Positions 3,500 through 14,955 of a stretch of DNA of 64,000 nucleotides are shown here, piece by piece; the first letter of the stretch is position 1, and every line of letters starts with the position of its first letter. The DNA lies in the NCBI RefSeq assembly GCF_963576615.1, contig NC_088708.1, forward strand, positions 42,861,115 to 42,925,114. The letters run 5' to 3'. Under the pieces are notes generated by a model, which saw nothing but the letters and a program-made list of their open reading frames with translations, was not told the origin of the DNA and searched no databases. The stretch is from Watersipora subatra (Eukaryota). The translations under genes and the position numbers were made by a program.

Positions 3500-5335
3500 G
3501 AAAAGTTTTGTATCTAGATGTTGCCAAACCATGCAACCATTCAATCTCAAACTGAACAAAGCTAAAAATGAGTACGTTGAAAAACAATCTAATAAACTAG
3601 ACTCAGCAGAGAATTCCAAGTTTTAGAAAACATTCAAGAAAGTTTTTTATCACCAGGAAGATCGCTTATCAGGTGGCTTAAAAGATAACCATGACAGTAT
3701 TCTACACAGTGATGAAAGCAAGGCAAAATATCTCTTTGACCATATATTTGGAGGTGGTCACCTAAATATGAATGCATTTTCCAACAAAAACAAGCCAATG
3801 TATTCTAGCTGAAAATGCAGAGAAATTCGTCTTACTTAATGAACCCATCACAATGGCAGAGATAGAACTTGCTCTTAGAAAGCTGAAACCGTCAAGAAAA
3901 AGTGCAGACTTCAATGGCATTCACTCAAAGATGCTAAAACAATCGAGTCCATTTCTTCTCATAGCTTTACGCTGCTTATTCAATGCTGTTCTCAAGACAC
4001 AAATATGGCCATGGAACAAGTCAAACTTAGTAATATTCCTTAGGAAAACTGGCAAAGCAGATTACACTGATGTAGGATCATACCATCCCATAACCATCAG
4101 CTCCCATGTGGGAAAAACACTGGAAAGGATTCTAGAAAAAAGACTAAGAGATAACATAAAAAATAATATATTATTACCAAACTCACAATTTGGCTTCTGA
4201 AAAAACAGAGGAACATTTGATGTAGCCTACTTTCTTCAACTGATATCAGAAACACAACGCCTTTAAAAGAAGCAACACACAGCAGCCATTTTCTTAGACC
4301 TTCAAAAGGCCTTTGATACTGTATGGCATCAAAGGATGATATCTAGATTAGCTGTCCTTGGGGTCTCTGATACCTTCTTGAGGACGGTTGAATCATTTCT
4401 CGCCCCAAGAAATATTCAACCGAAGGTAAACAACTATATACACACACCACAAAAATGTACAATAAGACTTCCACAAGGCAGTGTTTTGTCTCCATTGCTT
4501 TTCATTATACGTATACATACATGATATGCTACTACAAGTAGAAGGCACTGGTCTGCAATTTGCTGAAGATTGTACCATACTGATGTCAGATCATTCGTCA
4601 TCAGAGCTTCAAGACACATGCAACAAAAATTGCACTATTATGCAAGAATGGATGACAAAATGGAAATTAAAAATTAACTACCGAAAAACAGAATTAGTAG
4701 TTTTCCATGGTCATCTTCAACCCTCAGTGATGGAAAACGAGAACATTAAAATTGTTAGACTCCACAAAAGTACTTGGAATCTGGGTAGATAAGGGCCTAG
4801 AATTTATGAAACAGATTAGGAACAGCGTTAAGTCGCTGAATACAAAAATGAACATGTTAAAACCATTTCTGTATTCAGGAATGAGCTGTCAAACAGCAAA
4901 AAAGGTTCTCACTCATGCAATTATTCCTAAGGCTCTACATGCATGTTCTCTTTGGAACTTGACTGAAAAAATCACACTGCATCTCCACCTCAAACTCCTT
5001 CTTGGAACTCATTTAAATCCATATTTAGAATCATTACACGTTATTATTGGGATACCCCCGATAAATATTCAAATGACAAGGGAAAGGCTACAAATAATGC
5101 GGTGTCTGATTAAATCAGATATGTCACACATCATTACCGCTTCTCCTCACAGCTCACTGATAAAAGCATTTAAAGCTGATATCAGGAAGATAATCTCCAG
5201 AATTGTAGAAGTTGATAATATTGACTCTAAAGAACTCAGTAAAACAAACATTAACGATCTTACAAAATCAAAATGGCTGAGAAGATGGAAGATGCAACTA
5301 ATTATGGTAATTGCTCACTAGGCCTAATTGCAACT
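3500..5335 (+). mobile_element. Non-LTR retrotransposon (LINE) fragment. The reverse-transcriptase region of ORF2 is 5'-truncated and frameshifted.
   Basis: ORFs 3772..4200, 4336..4524, 4481..4792 and 4752..5321 carry RT motifs. These include LLPNSQFGF(RKNRGT), FLDLQKAFDTVWHQ, QGSVLSPLLF and FAEDCTI (the FADD box). They sit in consecutive shifted frames. Confidence 0.7.
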
Positions 5336-5992
5336 CTCCCAGTAGACCATTTATTCAATAACCCAATACCTCTAGAGACAGAAAGGAAAGCTGCAACTAT
5401 TTCAATAGACCATTGGAGCAACCTATAGGGGAGAACGGGGTAGGTTGGCCCTATGGGGCAGGTTGGACTATGTCAATTTTGGAAAATATATGTGTGTTTG
5501 GAGTTTTCTTCCCATATGAAATATAGGTCAATGAAATTACATCACTTCCTGTCAATGGCTGCCTCTCACATGTGCAAGGGTAAGTGAAATAATGTCAAAT
5601 CTATAATTTTTGCTCAAAAAGTAACTTTATGAAATATAACTTGTGGTCAGCATATTCTTGAGTGTGTTAATTCTACTTCTGTCATACTCTTAAGAGATGT
5701 CTAGCATATATTCAACCAAATTCAGATTAAGTTGGGAAGCCAGCAATAATGAAATTTTTGATGGTTGAAATTATGTCCACCAACTTCAGATGGGGCAAGT
5801 TGGCCTTTTGAAAAAGGGGCAGGTTGGCCTGTGGGCCAACCTACCCCATCAAGATTGTGAAATGGAAGTAAAGATTATGGCTTGTTTGAATCAGAATTAT
5901 TCAGTGGAGTACATATCCAAACAGACTCCAGCATAAAATATAGGCATATTTGTTGTAGAAACTTTATACTAGAATTTGACAAGCAATTAATC

Positions 5993-6494
5993 ATGGTTCG
6001 AAACTACAAGCGTAAAACAGAACGAGGGGCGACCAAAGAGGACATCACAGCTGCAATTCGGTTTTGGAATGAAGGTGCCTCACTGGACCAGACAGTAAAA
6101 CATTTAAAATTCCTGCCACAACCCTTAAAAGGCATAGAAAGAAATTGGGTGAGGGCTATACGCACTGTAAAACTGTAAAAATGGTTTTCAGCGATGCAAT
6201 GGAGCTGAACTTAGCTAATCATCTTAAAGAGCTAGACCTTCGATTTTATGGTTTGACACCCGTTAAGTGTCGTGAATTGGCTTATGAGTACGCCAAGAGC
6301 AACAGAGGAGAAGTTACCATGCCTGAGAGTTGGAAAACAAACAAGACCGCTGGTAAAGATTGGCTTGCTGGATTCTTGAAGCGACATAAGCTGTCCATAA
6401 GAACTCCGGAGGCCACCTCACTTGCTAGACAGTCAGGATTCAATCAGCCAGCAGTTAGCTTGTTCTTCAACAAACTTAAAGAAGTGACAGATAG
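5993..6494 (+). pseudogene. pogo transposase 5' exon with the N-terminal psq HTH and CENP-B-type HTH. It is disrupted by an 8-bp tandem duplication, ACTGTAAA twice, at 6164..6179.
   Basis: ORF 5882..6178 contains MVRNYKRKTERGATKEDITAAIRFWNEGASL from the Met at 5993. ORF 6145..6498 reads YGLTPVKCRELAYEYAKSNRGEV...WLAGFLKRHKLSIRTPEATS. Removing one copy of the 8-mer joins the two frames as ...RTVKMVFSDAME. A GTAAAC donor follows at 6495. Confidence 0.6.
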
Positions 6495-6711
6495 GTAAAC
6501 AAATCACACCAAAGTAGAAGGCAATGCACTATTACTAACTGACCAAAAGAGCCCAATTGAATTTTAAGCCTATATAAATTGTACAATGTTTAACCATAGA
6601 TATTAATACAGGCTCTTGTTTCTTACTTTACTAAACCATCAACTCATTCATGTCAGGCCTTTGGCTACTGTAACTATTTTGTTTCTGAATTGCTATGTTG
6701 TATTGTTTTAG

Positions 6712-8218
6712 GACCCAGATATCGCCTCAAAATATATACAATCTTGATGAAACTGGAGTTACCACCGTGCAAAATCCTGAAAGGGTGGTTAGCGTACTGG
6801 GAAAAAAGCAAGTGGGAGCAACTGCTTCTCAAGAGCGTGGGGAGCTCGTGACAATGTGTTGTGCCATAAATGCAATCGGCAATTCTCTGCCGCCATTTTA
6901 CATATTTCCTAGAGTTAATTTTAAACAGCACTTTCTCAATAGAGCTGCTGCTGGCTCAAAGGGAGTAGCGTGCAAAACCGGGTATATGAATAGCGATATT
7001 TTCACAAATGATTGCTTACCATTTTTCGTTAGCCATACAAAGCCCACCAGCAGTGAACCAATTCTTTTAATTCTGGACAATCATAGCTCTCATATATCTA
7101 TCCAGTCAATTGAATTTTGCAAAGAAAACAACGTAATTTTGTTAACTCTCCCACCTCACACCTCTCATAGGCTCCAACCCCTAGATCGCAGTGTATATGG
7201 ACCTTTGAAACGCTACTTGAATGCAGCGATGGACGATTGGCTGCGATGTCATCCGAGTCGCTACATTTCCATTTATGAAATGGCAGAGCTATCAGGCATA
7301 GCATTTACTAAAAGCTTCACAAATTCTAACATTACAGCTGGATTTCGTGCTACCGGTATATACCCCTATAACTTAGATGTATTCGACGACAGTGATTTCT
7401 TTCCCGCAGATATAACTGACCAACCTGACCCCAAGGCATGTCCATATGCTGCACAACAACCAAATCTTGAACGTCAACTTGATCCTGAGCGTCAACCTGA
7501 TCCTGAGTCACAATCTGATGGTAATCCACAACCTTCTACATCTACCCAACAGAGTGTTCCATCAACTAGTAACTGCAGCAATCCAAAGCAACTTGCAGCA
7601 ACACCAGTGACTAAAAGACAACTGCCAGTTCAGCACATAACCCCAGAACAACTCATGCCCTTGCCGAAAGCCTGCAGTCACCAAAGAAAGTTGAACAGGA
7701 AAAAAGTCTCATCAGCAATTCTCACCGACACACCTAAAAAAAATCGAATAGCAGAAAATGCAAAAGCCAGAAGACCAAAACCTCCTGCAAAAAAGCGAAA
7801 AAAATCACCAATGCCTGAATCCACCGATGAAGAAGATGTTGTATCAATTGATTTAACTGATTCAGAATCTGGAGACGACTTTCTAGAATTGGAATATAAT
7901 GACCAAGACGTTGGTGACATAACTCAAGGAGCTCACGTGTTGGTAAAATACCCGGCAGGTAGGAAAACAGTATTTTATGCCGGGTGTGTTCTTGAAGTGA
8001 TGGATGATGATAAGTTTGAAGTGAACTTTGTACACAAAGTCACCAACAGCAAGAATTGTGCGTTTCAATATCCCGACAAGGAAGACCGCGACTTGGTCAG
8101 CAAGGAGGACATTGTTATGAAATTAGGAGATCCGATTTCAACCGGGGGAACAATGAGATCAATTAAAAAGCTCACATTTGACGTTGATTTGAGATATTTC
8201 TATGACAATCTTCGCTAA
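6712..8218 (+). CDS. pogo transposase 3' exon with the DDE_1 catalytic domain, a basic NLS-like KKRKK, an acidic linker and a C-terminal barrel-like extension.
   Basis: The intron runs 6495..6711, from GTAAAC to a pyrimidine tract ending TTTTAG. The split codon AG|G encodes Arg and keeps the frame, giving ...KEVTDR|TQISPQNIYNLDETG. The DDE motif is present as DETG, LLILDNHSSHIS and LDRSVYGP. About 250 extra residues follow, ending in ...AHVLVKYPAGRKTVFYAGCVLEVMDDDKFEVNFVHKV...FQYPDKEDRDLVSKEDIV. Confidence 0.7.
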
Positions 8219-8622
8219 CCACCTTTAGTGCAGTATTAACCAAATCATTACACGTTTTCTGTTATTTTTTCTTTTCTTGATTCCCTGGCTGGGATTAGAT
8301 GATGTGGCAAACATTCTTATTCAGCTGTACTTCAAATAACTGCTTGTATTGCAGTGAATAAATAAATGAATAAACGGTCTTTATTTTTTGTGGTCGAACA
8401 AACTTTCTTAACACATGTTTTGGTACATAATATAAACTAGATAATGAACAGTCCAACCTGCCCCATTGAGAGGTCCAACCTACTCCGTGTGTGGGGTAGG
8501 TTGGACTTCTAATGATATGTTTAAAAAGACTGAATAACTCTTGAAATAACTTTCTCAGAGCTTTTCTAAAGCAGCACAATGTAGTTAAGAGTTAAAAATG
8601 TGGGCATACAAAGAATCATCAG

Positions 8623-8809
8623 TGTTACGTTATTGAATCATTGGCTTTGCCGTTTCCGGTTAGTGCATGCGCACGCAGTTCTGTTTTTATCCTCGAGGAT
8701 GCGTTACACGTTTTTCTAATGCTCTTGTATTGTATTCCTTATTCACATGTACTATTGTTCGTTATTCATAATATACGTTCTACAGCATTAACTACACACA
8801 TATTCAACA
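8623..8809 (+). repeat. gypsy 5' LTR
   Basis: Identical to 13022..13208 except at one position (G versus A at the 7th base). Confidence 0.85.
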
Positions 8810-8985
8810 ATGGCGACGAGGATGGGATTCGTAATTATCTCAATGTCCCCTATCGTTTTACTGTATTAGTTACCTGTATTTTTGTACTAGAACTGTTGCC
8901 TTTTTCTTGCGCAAGACACACGTTGTTGTGCATCTTTTTCTTAACAGAAATTCTCTCATAAAGCTCAACAAGCATTAATTTTGCA

Positions 8986-11900
8986 ATGGCAGCTCAAAAT
9001 TCCATTGGACGCATGGAACCATTTGATGAGTCAATTGAGTCATTCACATGTTATTTAGAGCGTTTTGATTTCTACACGGAAGCTAATAGCATTGATGATA
9101 GCAAAAAAAAGGCAACTTTTCTGAGCCTCATAGGTCCCAAGTTATATAAACTATTACGTGGTCTCACAGCACCAGATAGACCAACAGCTAAGTCATTAGA
9201 AGAATTAACCACGCTGCTAAGTAATCATATCTCACCACCTCCACTCGAAATTGCGGAAACATATCGCTTTCATCAACGAAACCAGCTACCTGGTGAAAGC
9301 ATCCATGAGTATGTTGCACAACTCAAGTTACTTGCTGAGCATTGCAATTTTGAAGGTGCGTACCGTGAACGGGTACTACGTAATAGACTGGTCTGTGGAA
9401 TTTACTGCGAAAATGCTCGCCGCAAACTGTTAACTGTAGCAGACTTAAATCTTTCACGTGCCATAGAGATTGCTCGAGGTATGGAGCAGGCTGGGAAAGA
9501 TGCCGAAGTCATGACACAACGACAGCCAACAGAATCTAAAGTCTGTCACATCTCTAACATGCATTCGCCTACTACCAGTGGCAAACCTTGGCCTTGTCGT
9601 TCCTGCGGGAGCACCCTTCATCCAAGAAAGCAATGCCCACACCTTCAAGCTGAATGTTTTAAATGTGGTCGGAAAGGCCATCTTCAATCTGTTTGTGAAC
9701 AGAAAACTCCAAGTAAAAGACCTCAACTCCAGAAGCCTCATAGACGAGCACAAAACACACACAGTGTAATGTCAGATGCAATTACAGAGGAGCATGAAGA
9801 TATAGCTCATATAAACACACTGTCTAAGGAGCACAGCCACCCACCAATCATGCTAGATACACTCATCAATGGTATCCCAGTGAAAATGGAACTTGATACA
9901 GGTGCAGGAGTGTCCACAATGCCATATCATATCTACAAAAAGATTAAAGGCTCATTGGAACTCCAACCTACATCTACTACTTTGAAACCATACGGCGCAA
10001 CGCAGTCAATTAAGCCGAAAGGAGTCATCTACTCAACTGTGCATTTCAGCAAGCAAGAAAGTAAAGCAAGGATGTTTGTGCTAGATAAATCCGAGGGTGA
10101 GCAGGTCCCATTGTTTGGAAGGGAATGGTTAAACCACTTTAAATTAAACTGGTCAGAGATCAAGGCTAATCGGGTCGAGGCAACGGCACAACTGAAGGAC
10201 ACTCTAGTTGCAAAGTACCCGTCCTTATTCAAGCAAACTTTAGGAGAAATGAAAAAGGTTGAAGCAACGCTCCGTACGCGCCCAAGTGCTATTCCTATTC
10301 GGCAAAAGCACCGAGTTGTACCATTCGCATTGCGGGCAAAAGTAGAACAAGAACTTGAATCTCTCCTAAATGAAAACGTTATCTCTCCAGTAGAACATAG
10401 TGAATGGGCAACACCTGTAGTTCCCGTCATAAAACCCAATGGTTCCATTAGGCTGTGTGGAGACTTTAAAGTTACCCTAAATCCTCAGCTAGTTGTTGAC
10501 TCATATCCTATGCCATCTATAGATGACCTTCAAGAAAAAATGAGTGGCGGAAAGTTATTCTCCAAATTAGATTTGTCAAAGGCCTTTGCTCAGATCAAAC
10601 TAGATGCAGCTTCAAAGCCTTTAGTTACTATCACTACACATAAAGGACTGTTCCAGTACAACCGACTCCCATACGGGGTGGCCTCAGCGCCTGCCATCCA
10701 CCAGAGAGCAATGGATGACATACTGGGTAGCCTACCAAATGTCTTATGTTATCAAGACGACATATTTATTACTGGTCAGAACTATGAATCACATCTATCT
10801 ACTTTGCATAGCGTTTTAGACCGTCTACAGAATTATGGGCTAAAGGTCAATAAAGAAAAGTGCTGCCTCCTACAATCATCAATTATTTATTTAGGACATC
10901 GCATAGATCAACACGGCCTGCACCCTATGGAAAGCAAGGTTAAGGCTATCAAAGAGGCTCCAACACCTACAAATATTGGTGAGCTTCGATCTTTCATAGG
11001 CTTAGTGAACTACTATCAAAAGTTTTTACCAAACTTAGCAACAGTCATGCACCCATTGCATCAACAGTTACGCAAAAATGCTCACTGGAACTGGTCTTCA
11101 CAATGTCAAGAAGCCTTTGTTCAGTTAAAGCAGCTGTTGTCTACAGACTGCGTGTTGACACCATACGATGTTAACTCTCCTCTGATACTGGCCTGTGATG
11201 CCTCAGCATACGGGGTAGGGGCAGTCTTATCGCACAAACTTTCAAATGGTGAAGAAAAGCCCATAGCATTTGCTTCTCGAACATTAAGCCCAAGTGAGCG
11301 AAACTATGCCCAAATCGAACGAGAGGCACTATCAATTATCTTTGGGGTAACAAAATTCCACCTCTACTTGTATGGCCGCTCATTTACCTTGCTCACTGAC
11401 CATAAGCCATTGGTTACAATTCTAGGCCCAAAAACCGGTGTTCCTCCTATTGCTGCGATGAGAATGCAAAGATGGGCCGCTATTCTAACAGCGTATACAT
11501 ACGACATAGAATACAAGTCATCACTCACTCATGCGAATGCTGATGCTATGTCACGGCTTCCGCAGCCATGCAGAAGACTTCATTGTGAACAAACAAGACT
11601 ATTTCACATTGAACAATATGCCCAACTACCCGTGACCTTTGAGACAGTATCCATAAAAACTCAGGAGGACAAAACATTGAGCAATGTCTACAACTCAACC
11701 ATACATGGTTGGCCTCCATACAGTGCCGCAAACATAGATCCATACTTTAGATGTCGACAAGAGCTCTCGACGCTAAAGGGTTGCTTGATGAGAGGCATAC
11801 GCCTTGTTATACCCTCTAGTTTGCGAGCCACAATACTCACCGAACTCCACCAAAGTCACTTGGGGATGGTCAAAATGAAAACAACAGCACGCAATTATGT

Positions 11901-12969
11901 ATGGTGGCCACAAATTGATGAGGACATTGAAGCCATTGCAAGGTCTTGTCCGCAGTGCAATGCGGTTAAACACAATCCTCCATCAGATCCCCACCATTGG
12001 GCCCCTGCTGATAGTCCATGGCAGCGAATACATTTGGATTATGCCGGTCCTCTAGATAATACAATGTTCCTAATTATAGTAGATGCCTATTCCAAATGGC
12101 TGGAAGTTTTTCCCATTCGGACGTCTACTTCAGCAATCACCATAGCAACACTACGAAGAGTCTTTGCTACACATGGGTTGCCCTATACAGTGGTCACTGA
12201 CAATGGACCTCAGTTCACATCAGGGGAGTTCATGCACTTCATGAAGAGCAATGGTATACGACATTTAACAATGGCACCATACCACCCACAAAGTAATGGT
12301 CAAGCCGAACGATTTGTACAGACATTCAAACAAGCTTACAAGGCTTCGACAGAAGCAGTAAACATGAAAGTTGATAAGTTTTTCCTCAAATATCGTACAT
12401 CGATTAGCATGGTAACAGGCAAGACGCCAGCAGAATTACTGATGGGCAGATGCCTGCGAACAAGACTAGATCTTCTGAAGCCATCAATTCAGGCTGCACC
12501 ACTTACAAACTTCTCGCAGAAGCGTCACTTTCAGGAGGGTGATTTAGTGTGGTACAAGACGTTTCAGAGACCAGCCGTTCAGTGGCTGCAAGGGTCAGTC
12601 ATGCATCTTCTGGGAAATTCCATGTATGAGATTTTAGATGCTTCCACCTCAGGTATCGTAAGGCGTCACGTTGATCAGCTACGCAAAAGAGAAACCTCTC
12701 CGTACTTGGCTGACACATCCAATGAAATGAACAGTGAACGCGAGGTGACAAAACCCAATCACTTGCCGATGGGTCAGGAGACAGGTGTCAATATTGAAGC
12801 GGAGACGTGTCCACACGAGCAGCCCTCTTCAGGCACCGTTGACTCGATTCCATGCACCCCCATGGCACAAGAAATACTACAATCACCACAATCAACACCT
12901 ACGCAAACCAGACAATCAGCGCGTGCGAAAACTGTCCCATCATATTTGTCAGATTATGAACTGTCCTAA
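8986..12969 (+). CDS. gypsy gag-pol polyprotein of 1327 aa in a single uninterrupted ORF. It covers gag with two CCHC knuckles, aspartic protease, RT, RNase H and integrase.
   Basis: The CCHC knuckles read CRSCGSTLHPRKQCPH and CFKCGRKGHLQSVC. The protease motif is LDTGAGVS. The RT motif is YQDDIFI. The integrase HHCC finger reads H..H...CPQC. The DDE core includes the segment DYAGP...TDNGPQF...E. A GPY/F-like tail follows. Confidence 0.9.
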   Translation: MAAQNSIGRMEPFDESIESFTCYLERFDFYTEANSIDDSKKKATFLSLIGPKLYKLLRGLTAPDRPTAKSLEELTTLLSNHISPPPLEIAETYRFHQRNQLPGESIHEYVAQLKLLAEHCNFEGAYRERVLRNRLVCGIYCENARRKLLTVADLNLSRAIEIARGMEQAGKDAEVMTQRQPTESKVCHISNMHSPTTSGKPWPCRSCGSTLHPRKQCPHLQAECFKCGRKGHLQSVCEQKTPSKRPQLQKPHRRAQNTHSVMSDAITEEHEDIAHINTLSKEHSHPPIMLDTLINGIPVKMELDTGAGVSTMPYHIYKKIKGSLELQPTSTTLKPYGATQSIKPKGVIYSTVHFSKQESKARMFVLDKSEGEQVPLFGREWLNHFKLNWSEIKANRVEATAQLKDTLVAKYPSLFKQTLGEMKKVEATLRTRPSAIPIRQKHRVVPFALRAKVEQELESLLNENVISPVEHSEWATPVVPVIKPNGSIRLCGDFKVTLNPQLVVDSYPMPSIDDLQEKMSGGKLFSKLDLSKAFAQIKLDAASKPLVTITTHKGLFQYNRLPYGVASAPAIHQRAMDDILGSLPNVLCYQDDIFITGQNYESHLSTLHSVLDRLQNYGLKVNKEKCCLLQSSIIYLGHRIDQHGLHPMESKVKAIKEAPTPTNIGELRSFIGLVNYYQKFLPNLATVMHPLHQQLRKNAHWNWSSQCQEAFVQLKQLLSTDCVLTPYDVNSPLILACDASAYGVGAVLSHKLSNGEEKPIAFASRTLSPSERNYAQIEREALSIIFGVTKFHLYLYGRSFTLLTDHKPLVTILGPKTGVPPIAAMRMQRWAAILTAYTYDIEYKSSLTHANADAMSRLPQPCRRLHCEQTRLFHIEQYAQLPVTFETVSIKTQEDKTLSNVYNSTIHGWPPYSAANIDPYFRCRQELSTLKGCLMRGIRLVIPSSLRATILTELHQSHLGMVKMKTTARNYVWWPQIDEDIEAIARSCPQCNAVKHNPPSDPHHWAPADSPWQRIHLDYAGPLDNTMFLIIVDAYSKWLEVFPIRTSTSAITIATLRRVFATHGLPYTVVTDNGPQFTSGEFMHFMKSNGIRHLTMAPYHPQSNGQAERFVQTFKQAYKASTEAVNMKVDKFFLKYRTSISMVTGKTPAELLMGRCLRTRLDLLKPSIQAAPLTNFSQKRHFQEGDLVWYKTFQRPAVQWLQGSVMHLLGNSMYEILDASTSGIVRRHVDQLRKRETSPYLADTSNEMNSEREVTKPNHLPMGQETGVNIEAETCPHEQPSSGTVDSIPCTPMAQEILQSPQSTPTQTRQSARAKTVPSYLSDYELS

Positions 12970-13021
12970 AAAGGGGATTACAATTAGTGATGATATGTTT
13001 CTTCCCTAGGGGAAGGAGAGA

Positions 13022-13208
13022 TGTTACATTATTGAATCATTGGCTTTGCCGTTTCCGGTTAGTGCATGCGCACGCAGTTCTGTTTTTATCCTCGAGGATG
13101 CGTTACACGTTTTTCTAATGCTCTTGTATTGTATTCCTTATTCACATGTACTATTGTTCGTTATTCATAATATACGTTCTACAGCATTAACTACACACAT
13201 ATTCAACA
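13022..13208 (+). repeat. gypsy 3' LTR
   Basis: Direct repeat of 8623..8809. The six-frame ORFs at 8641 and 13040 are identical 57-aa LTR artefacts. Confidence 0.85.
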
Positions 13209-13581
13209 ATCAGCATCTGATAAAAACACAGAACCAATAAGAAAAATTCAGAAAAGGGGGCCAACCTACCCCGGTCTCCCCTACACCCATACCTGCCAAC
13301 TCTCACGCATTGGGCGTGAGACTCACGCAATCACCCCAAAGAAAAAATGAAAATGCGTGAGAAATGCGTGAGATTTTTGCCCCAATTTCCACAATTTTAT
13401 ATATACTATCATTGATACATCAATTGCCCCAAAACCAAATCTCACGCATTGCCCCCCTCTTAGGTTGGCAGGTCTGCCTACACCGATATGCACATGTTTG
13501 TTGTAGGACGAAACTAGTATACACTACTTATACCAATGCTCAGACTATAGTACTCCTCAACAACAGATAAATCCAAACACT

Positions 13582-14955
13582 ATGAAATGGGACACTGTTG
13601 TTAAATTCATCAACAAAACAGAACAGGTTATAGAACATATTATTGCTCATAACATAAGAGATTATCTCGATCAGAATAACATCCTAAGTGAAACACAGCA
13701 TGGTTTTAGAAAAAAGCACAGCTGTGAATCTCAACTTATACACACCATATCAGACTTGGCAAATTTTAATAATCTTAACACTCAAGTGGATGTACTTGTT
13801 TTGGATTTTAGTAAAGCGTTTGATACAGTTTCGCATGACAAATTGATCCACAAACTTAGAAGTTATGGCCTAAATGCAAACGTAGTGACTTGGATACAGC
13901 ACTGGCTCCTGGACCGCACATTCTGTGTCATAGTTAACGGTAAAACATCTCCACCTACCCAGGTAACATCAGGTGTGCCCCAGGGGTCGGTGCTTGGACC
14001 CTTGCTTTTTCTTTTATATATCAATGACCTTCCAGAGTCTCTGAACTGTCCAAAGACATCCATACGTTTATTTGCGGATGATGCCATACTTTTAAGACCA
14101 ATAGAATGTGCGTCCGACAGCCTTCTGCTACAGGACCAACTGTGCAGAGTGGCTGCATGGGCTGAGTCGTGGCAGTTGAGATTTAATGCTAATAAATGCA
14201 CATCTACATCTGTGGAACCAGTTAGATTTTCACATATATACAACTATTGCGGTACATCTCTTATATCCTCGCAATCCTTTTTATACTTGGGTATACTTGT
14301 TTCTAGCACCCTCAATTTTAATGAACACATAAATCGCATCATACGTAAGGCTAACGGCACTCTTTTTATGCTTATGCGGACCCTTAAGAAAACATCTCCT
14401 AATGTCAAAAGGACAGCATACTATAGTGTGTGTCGTCCACTGCTAGAGTACGCTTCGGAAATCTGGAGTCCACATTTTGATTATAGTATACAAGATTTAG
14501 AATCCATTAACCGAAAAGCTTTTAGGTGGGCCAACAATTTAAGAAAATTTGATAGTATATCATCAGAAATGGTGAAAATGGGATGGCAAACACTTGCAGA
14601 GAGAAGACGCATCAAGGACGAAAGCACACTGCAAAAAATTTTAAGCCAAGACCTAATGGTCGATTTTAATAGATTTGTAATTAAGAACTCATCCTATTTT
14701 ACTCGAGGCTCCAATATCAGACACACAATCAATACAAGTGCAATGAAACACTCTTTTTTTAACCGTGCGATGAAATTTTAACATCTGATTCTCTTATAAC
14801 TAGACCAAGCGATCTTATACTTTTATCCTTCAGACTTAGATAAATAAGTCTATGCTTATTTGTGATCTTATTTTTATGCCTAATGCACCATTTTATTTCT
14901 ACAGGCCTAGCGGCCACTTGAGATATTTTACAGAGATAGATAGATAGATAGAACG
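13582..14955 (+). mobile_element. Second non-LTR retrotransposon (LINE) 3' fragment. It has an RT ORF and a (GATA)n tail.
   Basis: ORF 13582..14781 carries RT motifs LDFSKAFDTVSHD, QGSVLGPLLF and LFADDAILL. A microsatellite (AGAT)5 at about 14934..14953 is typical of CR1/L2-type 3' ends. Confidence 0.7.

Follow-up and report, generated by a model that had tools for sequence, protein, structure and literature searches.

A pogo-superfamily transposon of Watersipora subatra and the predicted Tudor-like barrel at the C terminus of its transposase family

The window analyzed here is a 64,000-nucleotide stretch of the Watersipora subatra genome (NCBI RefSeq assembly GCF_963576615.1, contig NC_088708.1, positions 42,861,115 to 42,925,114 of the forward strand). 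Positions 5428-13281 of this window hold one copy, inactivated recently, of an autonomous transposon that moves by cut-and-paste and belongs to the pogo superfamily (IS630-Tc1-mariner group). The right end of the element is split off from its body because a Ty3/gypsy retrotransposon sits at 8623-13208; once this nested insert is subtracted, the pogo-type element is about 3.26 kb long. An earlier note on this DNA had put its ends at 5455 and 8464, but both of these are internal copies of a 14-nucleotide motif described below. The true termini read TA followed by GGGGAGAACGGGG at 5428, and CCCCGGTCTCCCC followed by TA at 13281.

The terminal inverted repeats (TIRs) are 24 nt long and start with GGGGA. 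The left TIR, GGGGAGAACGGGGTAGGTTGGCCC, occupies 5428-5451 on the plus strand and agrees with the reverse complement of 13258-13281 in 23 of 24 nucleotides; the right TIR, at 13258-13281 on the minus strand, reads GGGCCAACCTACCCCGGTCTCCCC on the plus strand. Next to the right TIR lies a TA at 13282-13283, which pairs with the TA at 5426-5427 to make a target-site duplication (TSD). The left TA stands directly 5' of GGGGAGA both here and in a second copy of the element, L001 (European Nucleotide Archive assembly ERZ6864376), which is 97% identical at the nucleotide level and has different flanking DNA. In a pairwise alignment the homology between the two copies starts at TAGGGGAGA, window position 5426. 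These are the two copies of the element that were seen (n=2). More distant relatives have TA-GGGGA...GGGG termini in common with the window copy: both match the window element in design, L003 running from TA and GGGGAAGGTGGGGATCC to a closing TA, and L004 from TA and GGGGAAGCAGGGGTAAGTAGTGCC to a closing TA, with a subterminal repeat array of its own.

The element contains a two-exon gene on the plus strand that encodes a 669-aa transposase after repair of one nucleotide and removal of one intron; there is no other defect. Exon 1 (5993-6494), whose open reading frame (ORF) is intact in L001, covers the N-terminal DNA-binding region, comprising a psq-like helix-turn-helix (HTH) recognized by family homology and a Tc5/CENP-B-type HTH recognized by Pfam. 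Exon 2 (6712-8218), delimited by the ORF listing and the Pfam DDE_1 match, encodes the DDE_1 core and a C-terminal module and is open to its stop codon; the ORF in which it lies, 6695-8218, is 507 aa long. The closest named homologue is P0001, also from Watersipora subatra, with 68-71% identity. Against residues 37-168 of P0001, the exon-1 frame 6073-6495 is 80% identical, starting at FKIPATTLKRH. About 140 nt past the stop codon, three AATAAA hexamers read from the sequence (8357-8374, plus strand) are likely polyadenylation signals.

Why is this copy inactive? The earlier note had correctly called it dead by a frameshift in the HTH region, but had misplaced the cause, which it took to be an 8-bp tandem duplication, ACTGTAAA-ACTGTAAA. 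The tandem is indeed present at 6164-6179 on the plus strand, but it belongs to the native coding sequence (..H C K T V K M..). L001 has the identical ACTGTAAAACTGTAAAA within an uninterrupted exon-1 ORF, and CKTVKM is kept in P0001, whose ...GEGYVRCKTVKMVFSEAME... corresponds to ...GEGYTHCKTVKMVFSDAME... of the window frame 6073-6495; the octamer tandem was therefore ruled out as the lesion. By our own estimate, an 8-nt tandem arises by chance about once per 64 kb. The sole frame-changing difference between the window and L001 in a pairwise alignment of exon 1 is instead an A-run that is one base short (6097-6100, plus strand; AAAA in the window, AAAAA in L001) and that frameshifts the first HTH. 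Judged by this comparison, the window copy is dead through a 1-nt deletion in that run. L001 has decayed elsewhere, with its splice donor changed from GT to AT (L001 position ~1197, equivalent to window 6495) and three indels in exon 2, so that both copies are dead by different lesions and both are frameshifted.

The intron (6495-6711, plus strand) is 217 nt long, runs from GT to AG with a pyrimidine-rich 3' end, and is in phase 2 within an Arg codon (AG/G). Joining 6494 to 6712 gives ...KLKEVTDR-TQISPQNIYNLDETG and restores gap-free collinearity with P0001 and all other homologues. L002 and L004 (49% and 48% identity) are interrupted at the identical codon and phase, by GTGAGT...CAG and GTAGGT...TAG sequences, respectively, that are unrelated to the window intron, and the more distant L003 (40% identity) has one continuous frame. 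Because position and phase are kept in L002 and L004, the intron appears to be genuine, as the earlier note had claimed, and ancestral to a sub-clade rather than family-wide. The same note had overstated how unusual an intron is for pogo elements. Drosophila pogo is itself spliced and has two exons. Either one or two ORFs are described for pogo elements by Gao et al. (2020; PMC7386202). A second GT..AG intron is seen in L002 (484-667) and L004 (~2010-2098), after ..EKAG and before.DW..GF. The window element does not have it, implying intron gain or loss within one transposon sub-clade.

The membership of the element in the pogo superfamily is indicated by its DDE_1 domain, DD35D triad, HTH_Tnp_Tc5 match, TA duplication, and short TIRs. 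Pfam DDE_1 (PF03184) matches the ORF 6695-8218 with an E-value of 2.6e-16 (60 bits, compared to a cut-off of 22), and NCBIfam gives a weak IS630 match. The catalytic residues D180, D290, and D326 (6746-6748, 7076-7078, and 7184-7186) all fall in invariant columns of alignment A1, and their DD35D spacing is within the pogo range of DD29-59D. HTH_Tnp_Tc5 matches the frame 6145-6495 with an E-value of 8.5e-05 (22.9 bits, cut-off 22.2), scores 19.5 bits on the full repaired protein, and is a clear match in relatives. Pfam finds no psq HTH in the window copy, the repaired protein included; that match occurs in relatives only. Nor does Pfam find CENP-B_N in the window copy, and the relatives match HTH_psq instead. 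Thus, of the psq HTH, CENP-B HTH, and DDE_1 architecture first proposed for this protein, the Tc5/CENP-B-type HTH and DDE_1 hold for the window copy, whereas psq holds only for relatives; similarly, the label pogo/Tigger-like is supported as to pogo (DDE_1, DD35D, TA, TIRs), but the domain content, with CENP-B_N undetected, lends no support to Tigger.

Within the superfamily, the element most resembles Passer and Fot/Fot-like elements (sensu Gao et al., 2020; PMC7386202), with which it shares DDE_1, DD35D, HTH_Tnp_Tc5, the TA duplication, and TIRs shorter than 40 bp. The HTH_psq and Tc5 pair of the relatives is moreover the combination reported for Fot/Fot-like elements (Gao et al., 2020; PMC7386202). 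Passer elements are described as having DD35D, Brk plus Tc5, and TIRs shorter than 30 bp (PMC9976928; Gao et al., 2020); the window copy has DD35D and a 24-nt TIR, but a Pfam scan of its repaired transposase gave no match to the Brk motif. The transposases of the window family are 650-720 aa long, compared to 400-500 aa for Passer (PMC9976928), and at 669 aa the window protein exceeds the Passer range because of its extra C-terminal module. This module of ~190 aa, the GGGGA termini, and the multiple subterminal motif copies at each end all set the element apart from Passer and Fot-like elements. On a comparison of protein length, domain content, and spacing, we regard it as not a typical Passer. 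With Tigger and Drosophila pogo it shares the superfamily and the HTH-HTH-DDE_1 order, but the CENP-B_N motif typical of Tigger/pogoR is not detected. Furthermore, inspection of the C terminus by eye revealed neither a Qxx[LIM]xx[FY][FY] pattern (the PIP box, which binds PCNA) nor an ExExFxGF pattern (LEDGF binding); unlike Drosophila pogo and Tigger, the window protein has no PIP box at its C terminus and is predicted to have a folded barrel there instead.

The ends of the element carry a 14-nt motif, GGGGYAGGTTGGMC, that has nine matches in the window compared to 0.01 expected by chance, all of them inside the pogo element. Its copies are grouped in both subterminal regions and in both orientations. 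The left cluster (5437-5847) has copies at 5437+, 5455+, 5792+, 5816+, and 5834-; in a motif scan, the right copies (8451-8506) are at 8451-, 8473-, and 8493+. We presume these to be transposase binding sites. In each subterminal region one facing pair forms a near-palindrome, at 5816-5847 (GGGGCAGGTTGGCC TGTG GGCCAACCTACCCC) on the left and at 8473-8506 on the right, which suggests paired binding sites. Such ends are reminiscent of the inverted repeat/direct repeat (IR/DR) ends of Sleeping Beauty-like Tc1 elements, in having several binding-site-like repeats per end beyond the tip alone. They differ in that the window element has 4-5 copies of its putative sites per end, in both orientations and up to ~400 bp inward.

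The C-terminal module has three parts, all on the plus strand. The first (7634-7807) is a conserved basic linear motif with a KKRKK stretch resembling a nuclear localization signal (NLS; PAKKRKKS), with an isoelectric point (pI) of 11.5 and an AlphaFold2 confidence (predicted local distance difference test, pLDDT) of 60-79. The family consensus of the linear motif, TPE..RP.PKA..RK....RKK.K..ILTDTPEK..IE, spans 7634-7735, between the catalytic core and the acidic linker; in A1 its P, K, T, T, and P do not vary, and the AlphaFold2 confidence over it is moderate. The motif could serve as an NLS, as a docking peptide, or in contacting DNA. The second part (7808-7918) is an acidic, D/E/S-rich linker (pI 4.05) that is predicted to be disordered (pLDDT 49-64). 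The third (7919-8215) is a predicted Tudor-like SH3 barrel of ~60 aa with a conserved C-terminal extension (KLP.P...GGT.R......F..DL..YN). The KKRKK stretch, the acidic linker, and the HVLVKYPAGRKTVFYAG... segment had all been pointed out before, and all are present in the ORF. The ~100-aa domain as a whole has the consensus GDFVLVKF..KK...YYVG.V.......V.FLRK......F.FP...D...V...DIV.KLP.P...GGT.R......F..DL..YN. In alignments A1 and A2, which also cover the basic region, L and R of the domain are invariant and Y, F, F, P, and F nearly so; the most conserved residues (L66, P69, GGT73-75, R77, and F84) are in the extension past the canonical barrel.

Is this module a property of the family or of one copy? 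With the exon-2 protein as query, 1560 homologues were found, and the majority of the best 120 cover 94-100% of the query, the exceptions being mostly truncated products. These 120 come from Hydra, ticks, spiders, a scorpion, a sea spider, chitons, a gastropod, a tunicate, fishes, and a bryozoan. Homologues from at least six animal phyla align with the module over its full length, linear motif and barrel included. An exhaustive HMMER search limited to the domain returned 251 proteins, in which the match was nearly always C-terminal. When 28 longer domain matches were examined with Pfam, 15 had DDE_1, 3 were multi-repeat proteins matching another family at gathering level, and 10 had at most a weak HTH. 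Other searches added little: the 112-aa domain by itself gave nothing in a word-indexed homologue search, a domain-profile homologue search added no new architectures and gave only 13 proteins, all short and unannotated, and a profile search with the whole-protein alignment gave nothing but a marginal HTH match. The phmmer matches P0144 and P0227, multi-repeat proteins with Calx-beta/MucBP, were set aside as repeat-inflated noise. We conclude from these alignments that the ~190-aa extension is family-wide rather than captured flank, and that the domain is probably ancestral to a family spread over Metazoa. Three proteins, P0224, P0235, and P0170, have an N-terminal HTH and the C-terminal barrel with no DDE_1 match, and may have arisen within the family by internal deletion, possibly as repressor-like derivatives. 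P0017, deposited under a Kangiellaceae bacterium metagenome-assembled genome, almost certainly represents animal DNA that contaminated a metagenome bin.

The architecture, a DNA transposase with a built-in royal-family-like barrel, is apparently undescribed. Two large surveys of pogo elements make no mention of a C-terminal domain (Gao et al., PMC7386202; Dupeyron et al., PMC7325037), and a literature text search for pogo together with Tudor found only citations of the author M. Tudor.

The last ~100 aa are confidently predicted to form a royal-family-like (Tudor-like) SH3 barrel with a family-specific extension. In an AlphaFold2 model of 192 aa built with 83 homologues, pLDDT was 91-98 over the last 100 aa and low to moderate over the linear motif and linker; a model of the domain alone had a pLDDT of 90 and a predicted template modeling score (pTM) of 0.81. 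The predicted model has the five strands of an SH3-like barrel. The proposal of such a barrel in this segment, rather than disorder, is thus supported by structure prediction. The best structural matches were the PHF19 and MTF2 Tudor domains, the Shuguo PWWP domain, an Agenet pair, the MRG701 chromo-barrel, and the NSD2 PWWP domain, with several BAH domains further down the list at longer alignments (78-82 aa). The Foldseek list consisted mostly of Tudor, SGF29, chromo-barrel, and BAH domains, with weak E-values, the best being 7e-3. At the level of sequence, sub-threshold Pfam matches were seen in 3 of 53 members (Tudor_5, BAH, SAWADEE, and MOV10-barrel), and a phmmer match to P0206, a Tudor_5/Agenet repeat protein, was possibly repeat-inflated and was counted only as a hint.

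We also compared the domain profile with the PHF1 Tudor sequence, verified against 6wat and 4hcz, by hhalign. The register places VLVKY on VLARW of PHF1 (W41) and FYAG on LYLG (Y47), so that the beta1-beta2 region looks correct, albeit without statistical support. The columns at W41 and Y47 and at the beta3 Phe (F65) are aromatic in 69-100% of members; by sequence alignment, three of the four positions of the Tudor cage therefore have conserved aromatics. Polycomb-like Tudor domains read H3K36me3. The window domain nevertheless differs from those of PHF1, PHF19, and MTF2 in several respects: it has no significant sequence similarity to them, it has a conserved extension of ~35 aa with an invariant Arg, and it belongs to a transposase, whereas theirs belong to PHD-finger chromatin proteins.

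The working model that we favor, to which we assign a probability of roughly 45%, is that the barrel docks the transposase on a chromatin ligand and thereby biases integration. The HTH region would bind the 14-nt motifs, leading to transpososome assembly, and the acidic linker would serve as a flexible tether for the barrel. The barrel would then dock on a ligand carried by chromatin, with a methylated lysine or arginine of a histone tail as the most likely candidate, and integration at TA sites would as a result be biased to one chromatin state. A more specific version of this model, in which an ancient, Metazoa-wide pogo lineage has its own divergent Polycomb-like Tudor reader on an acidic tether that steers TA-site integration, is more doubtful, and we offer it only tentatively.

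Several observations weigh against a chromatin-reading role for the domain. No Pfam model matches the last ~260 aa of the window ORF, and for the window copy this includes the Tudor, Chromo, PWWP, MBT, and BAH models. When PDB sequences were searched with a profile of the domain alignment, the best E-value was 0.66, for a DIS3 match that we judged spurious. The hhalign comparison with the PHF1 Tudor domain had an E-value of 0.033 and a probability of 1.5%. The fourth cage position is ambiguous, there being a 16-aa insertion between beta3 and beta4 relative to PHF1. The residues most conserved in the family are not in the canonical barrel and might belong to another activity. Finally, only the two copies of the window element were seen.

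The alternative that survives best is that the barrel serves the transposition machinery as a structural component, either binding nucleic acid (DNA of the transposon ends or of the target, as PWWP and KOW barrels can) or mediating oligomerization, as the CENP-B dimerization domain does. We consider this less likely than the favored model. It gains from the median pI of the domain across the family, 8.7, from the position of the invariant R77 and the GGT loop outside the canonical cage, and from the precedent of CENP-B, which acquired a C-terminal dimerization domain (Gao et al., PMC7386202). It does not, however, sit easily with the long disordered acidic linker that precedes the domain, which fits a tethered reader better than a core DNA-binding element, nor with the efficient transposition of Passer transposases, which have no such domain in their 400-500 aa (PMC9976928). 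In addition, the top structural matches are readers of histone marks, and the cage-equivalent aromatics are conserved.

It is distinctly less probable that the barrel binds a host protein, for example a PIWI protein through its symmetrically dimethylated arginines, in the manner of extended Tudor domains, and so regulates or protects the transposon rather than choosing its targets. The structural matches on which this idea rests rank below the histone-reading Tudors of the Polycomb-like type, and the domain, at only ~100 aa, lacks the SN-like flanks of extended Tudor domains.

A further alternative is that the gene is not mobile at all but a domesticated, transposase-derived host gene that acquired a reader domain and an intron. 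Such a gene might be expected from the presence of introns and from the conservation of the protein over long evolutionary distances. Against this, the window copy and its relatives have a perfect TA TSD and TIRs, a second copy that is 97% identical in nucleotide sequence sits in other flanking DNA, both copies are frameshifted, the window copy lies in a nest of transposable elements, and many clusters in the protein collection have multiple members. The TSD and TIRs, the second copy, and the frameshifts effectively refute domestication. Least probable of all, the idea that the extension is captured flank or a read-through artefact of the window ORF found no support and is refuted by the end-to-end alignment of the extension with homologues across the family.

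Where a cut-and-paste DNA transposon inserts is usually explained by local DNA sequence and by accessibility, and built-in chromatin readers are well documented mainly in long terminal repeat (LTR) retroelements. The arrangement that we propose would resemble that of chromoviruses, in which the Ty3/gypsy integrase carries a C-terminal chromodomain, and that of lentiviral integrase with the PWWP domain of LEDGF/p75: in each case a royal-family barrel is at, or is recruited to, the C terminus of a DDE recombinase. Those systems, however, involve retroelement integrases whose targeting has been shown experimentally, whereas the window element encodes a cut-and-paste transposase whose targeting we infer. 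Fusions of chromatin-reader-like domains to DNA transposons have themselves been catalogued, for example hAT-Chromo in a sponge (Grau-Bove et al., bioRxiv 10.1101/2021.11.30.470311). They share with the window family the joining of such a domain to a DNA transposase but were found with Pfam Chromo and PHD models and are mostly lineage-restricted, whereas the window domain is invisible to Pfam and Metazoa-wide. It was probably missed in that study because the catalogue was built on the co-occurrence of recognized domains. The family would offer a testable example of chromatin-guided DNA transposition. If the model is true, it would be a DNA-transposon counterpart of the chromoviruses and a natural scaffold for chromatin-targeted transposases. 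Passer and pogo elements have attracted interest as tools for gene transfer, and the C-terminal domain might serve there as a natural module with which to bias integration. The domain is also a candidate new family for Pfam.

The annotation of the window is corrected by this analysis as to the boundaries of the element, the cause of its inactivation, and the nesting order of three transposable elements. The Ty3/gypsy LTR retrotransposon that interrupts the pogo element at 8623-13208 (plus strand) is not part of it, as indicated by its own LTRs, TSD, and ORF domains. Its 187-nt LTRs, TG..CA, at 8623-8809 and 13022-13208 (found as a 189-nt direct repeat), are 99% identical, and a 5-bp TSD, ATCAG, flanks it at 8618-8622 and 13209-13213. 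It has a primer-binding-site-like sequence, TGGCGACGAGG, and an intact ORF for a 1327-aa gag-pol protein with protease, reverse transcriptase (RT), RNaseH, and integrase domains. With these features the insert looks young and is possibly still active.

Further retroelement sequence lies on both flanks, in the form of RVT_1 ORFs at 4336-5321 and 13582-14781. The upstream ORF matches the C-terminal portion of the RT profile and the downstream one its N-terminal portion, implying that they are separate retroelement copies and that the region is a nest of transposable elements. Directly to the right of the pogo element, at 13290-13470, the words CTCACGCAT and GCGTGAGA are repeated (ctcacgcattgggcgtgagactcacgc ... 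atgcgtgagaaatgcgtgaga ... tctcacgcattg), and may be the end of another repeat.

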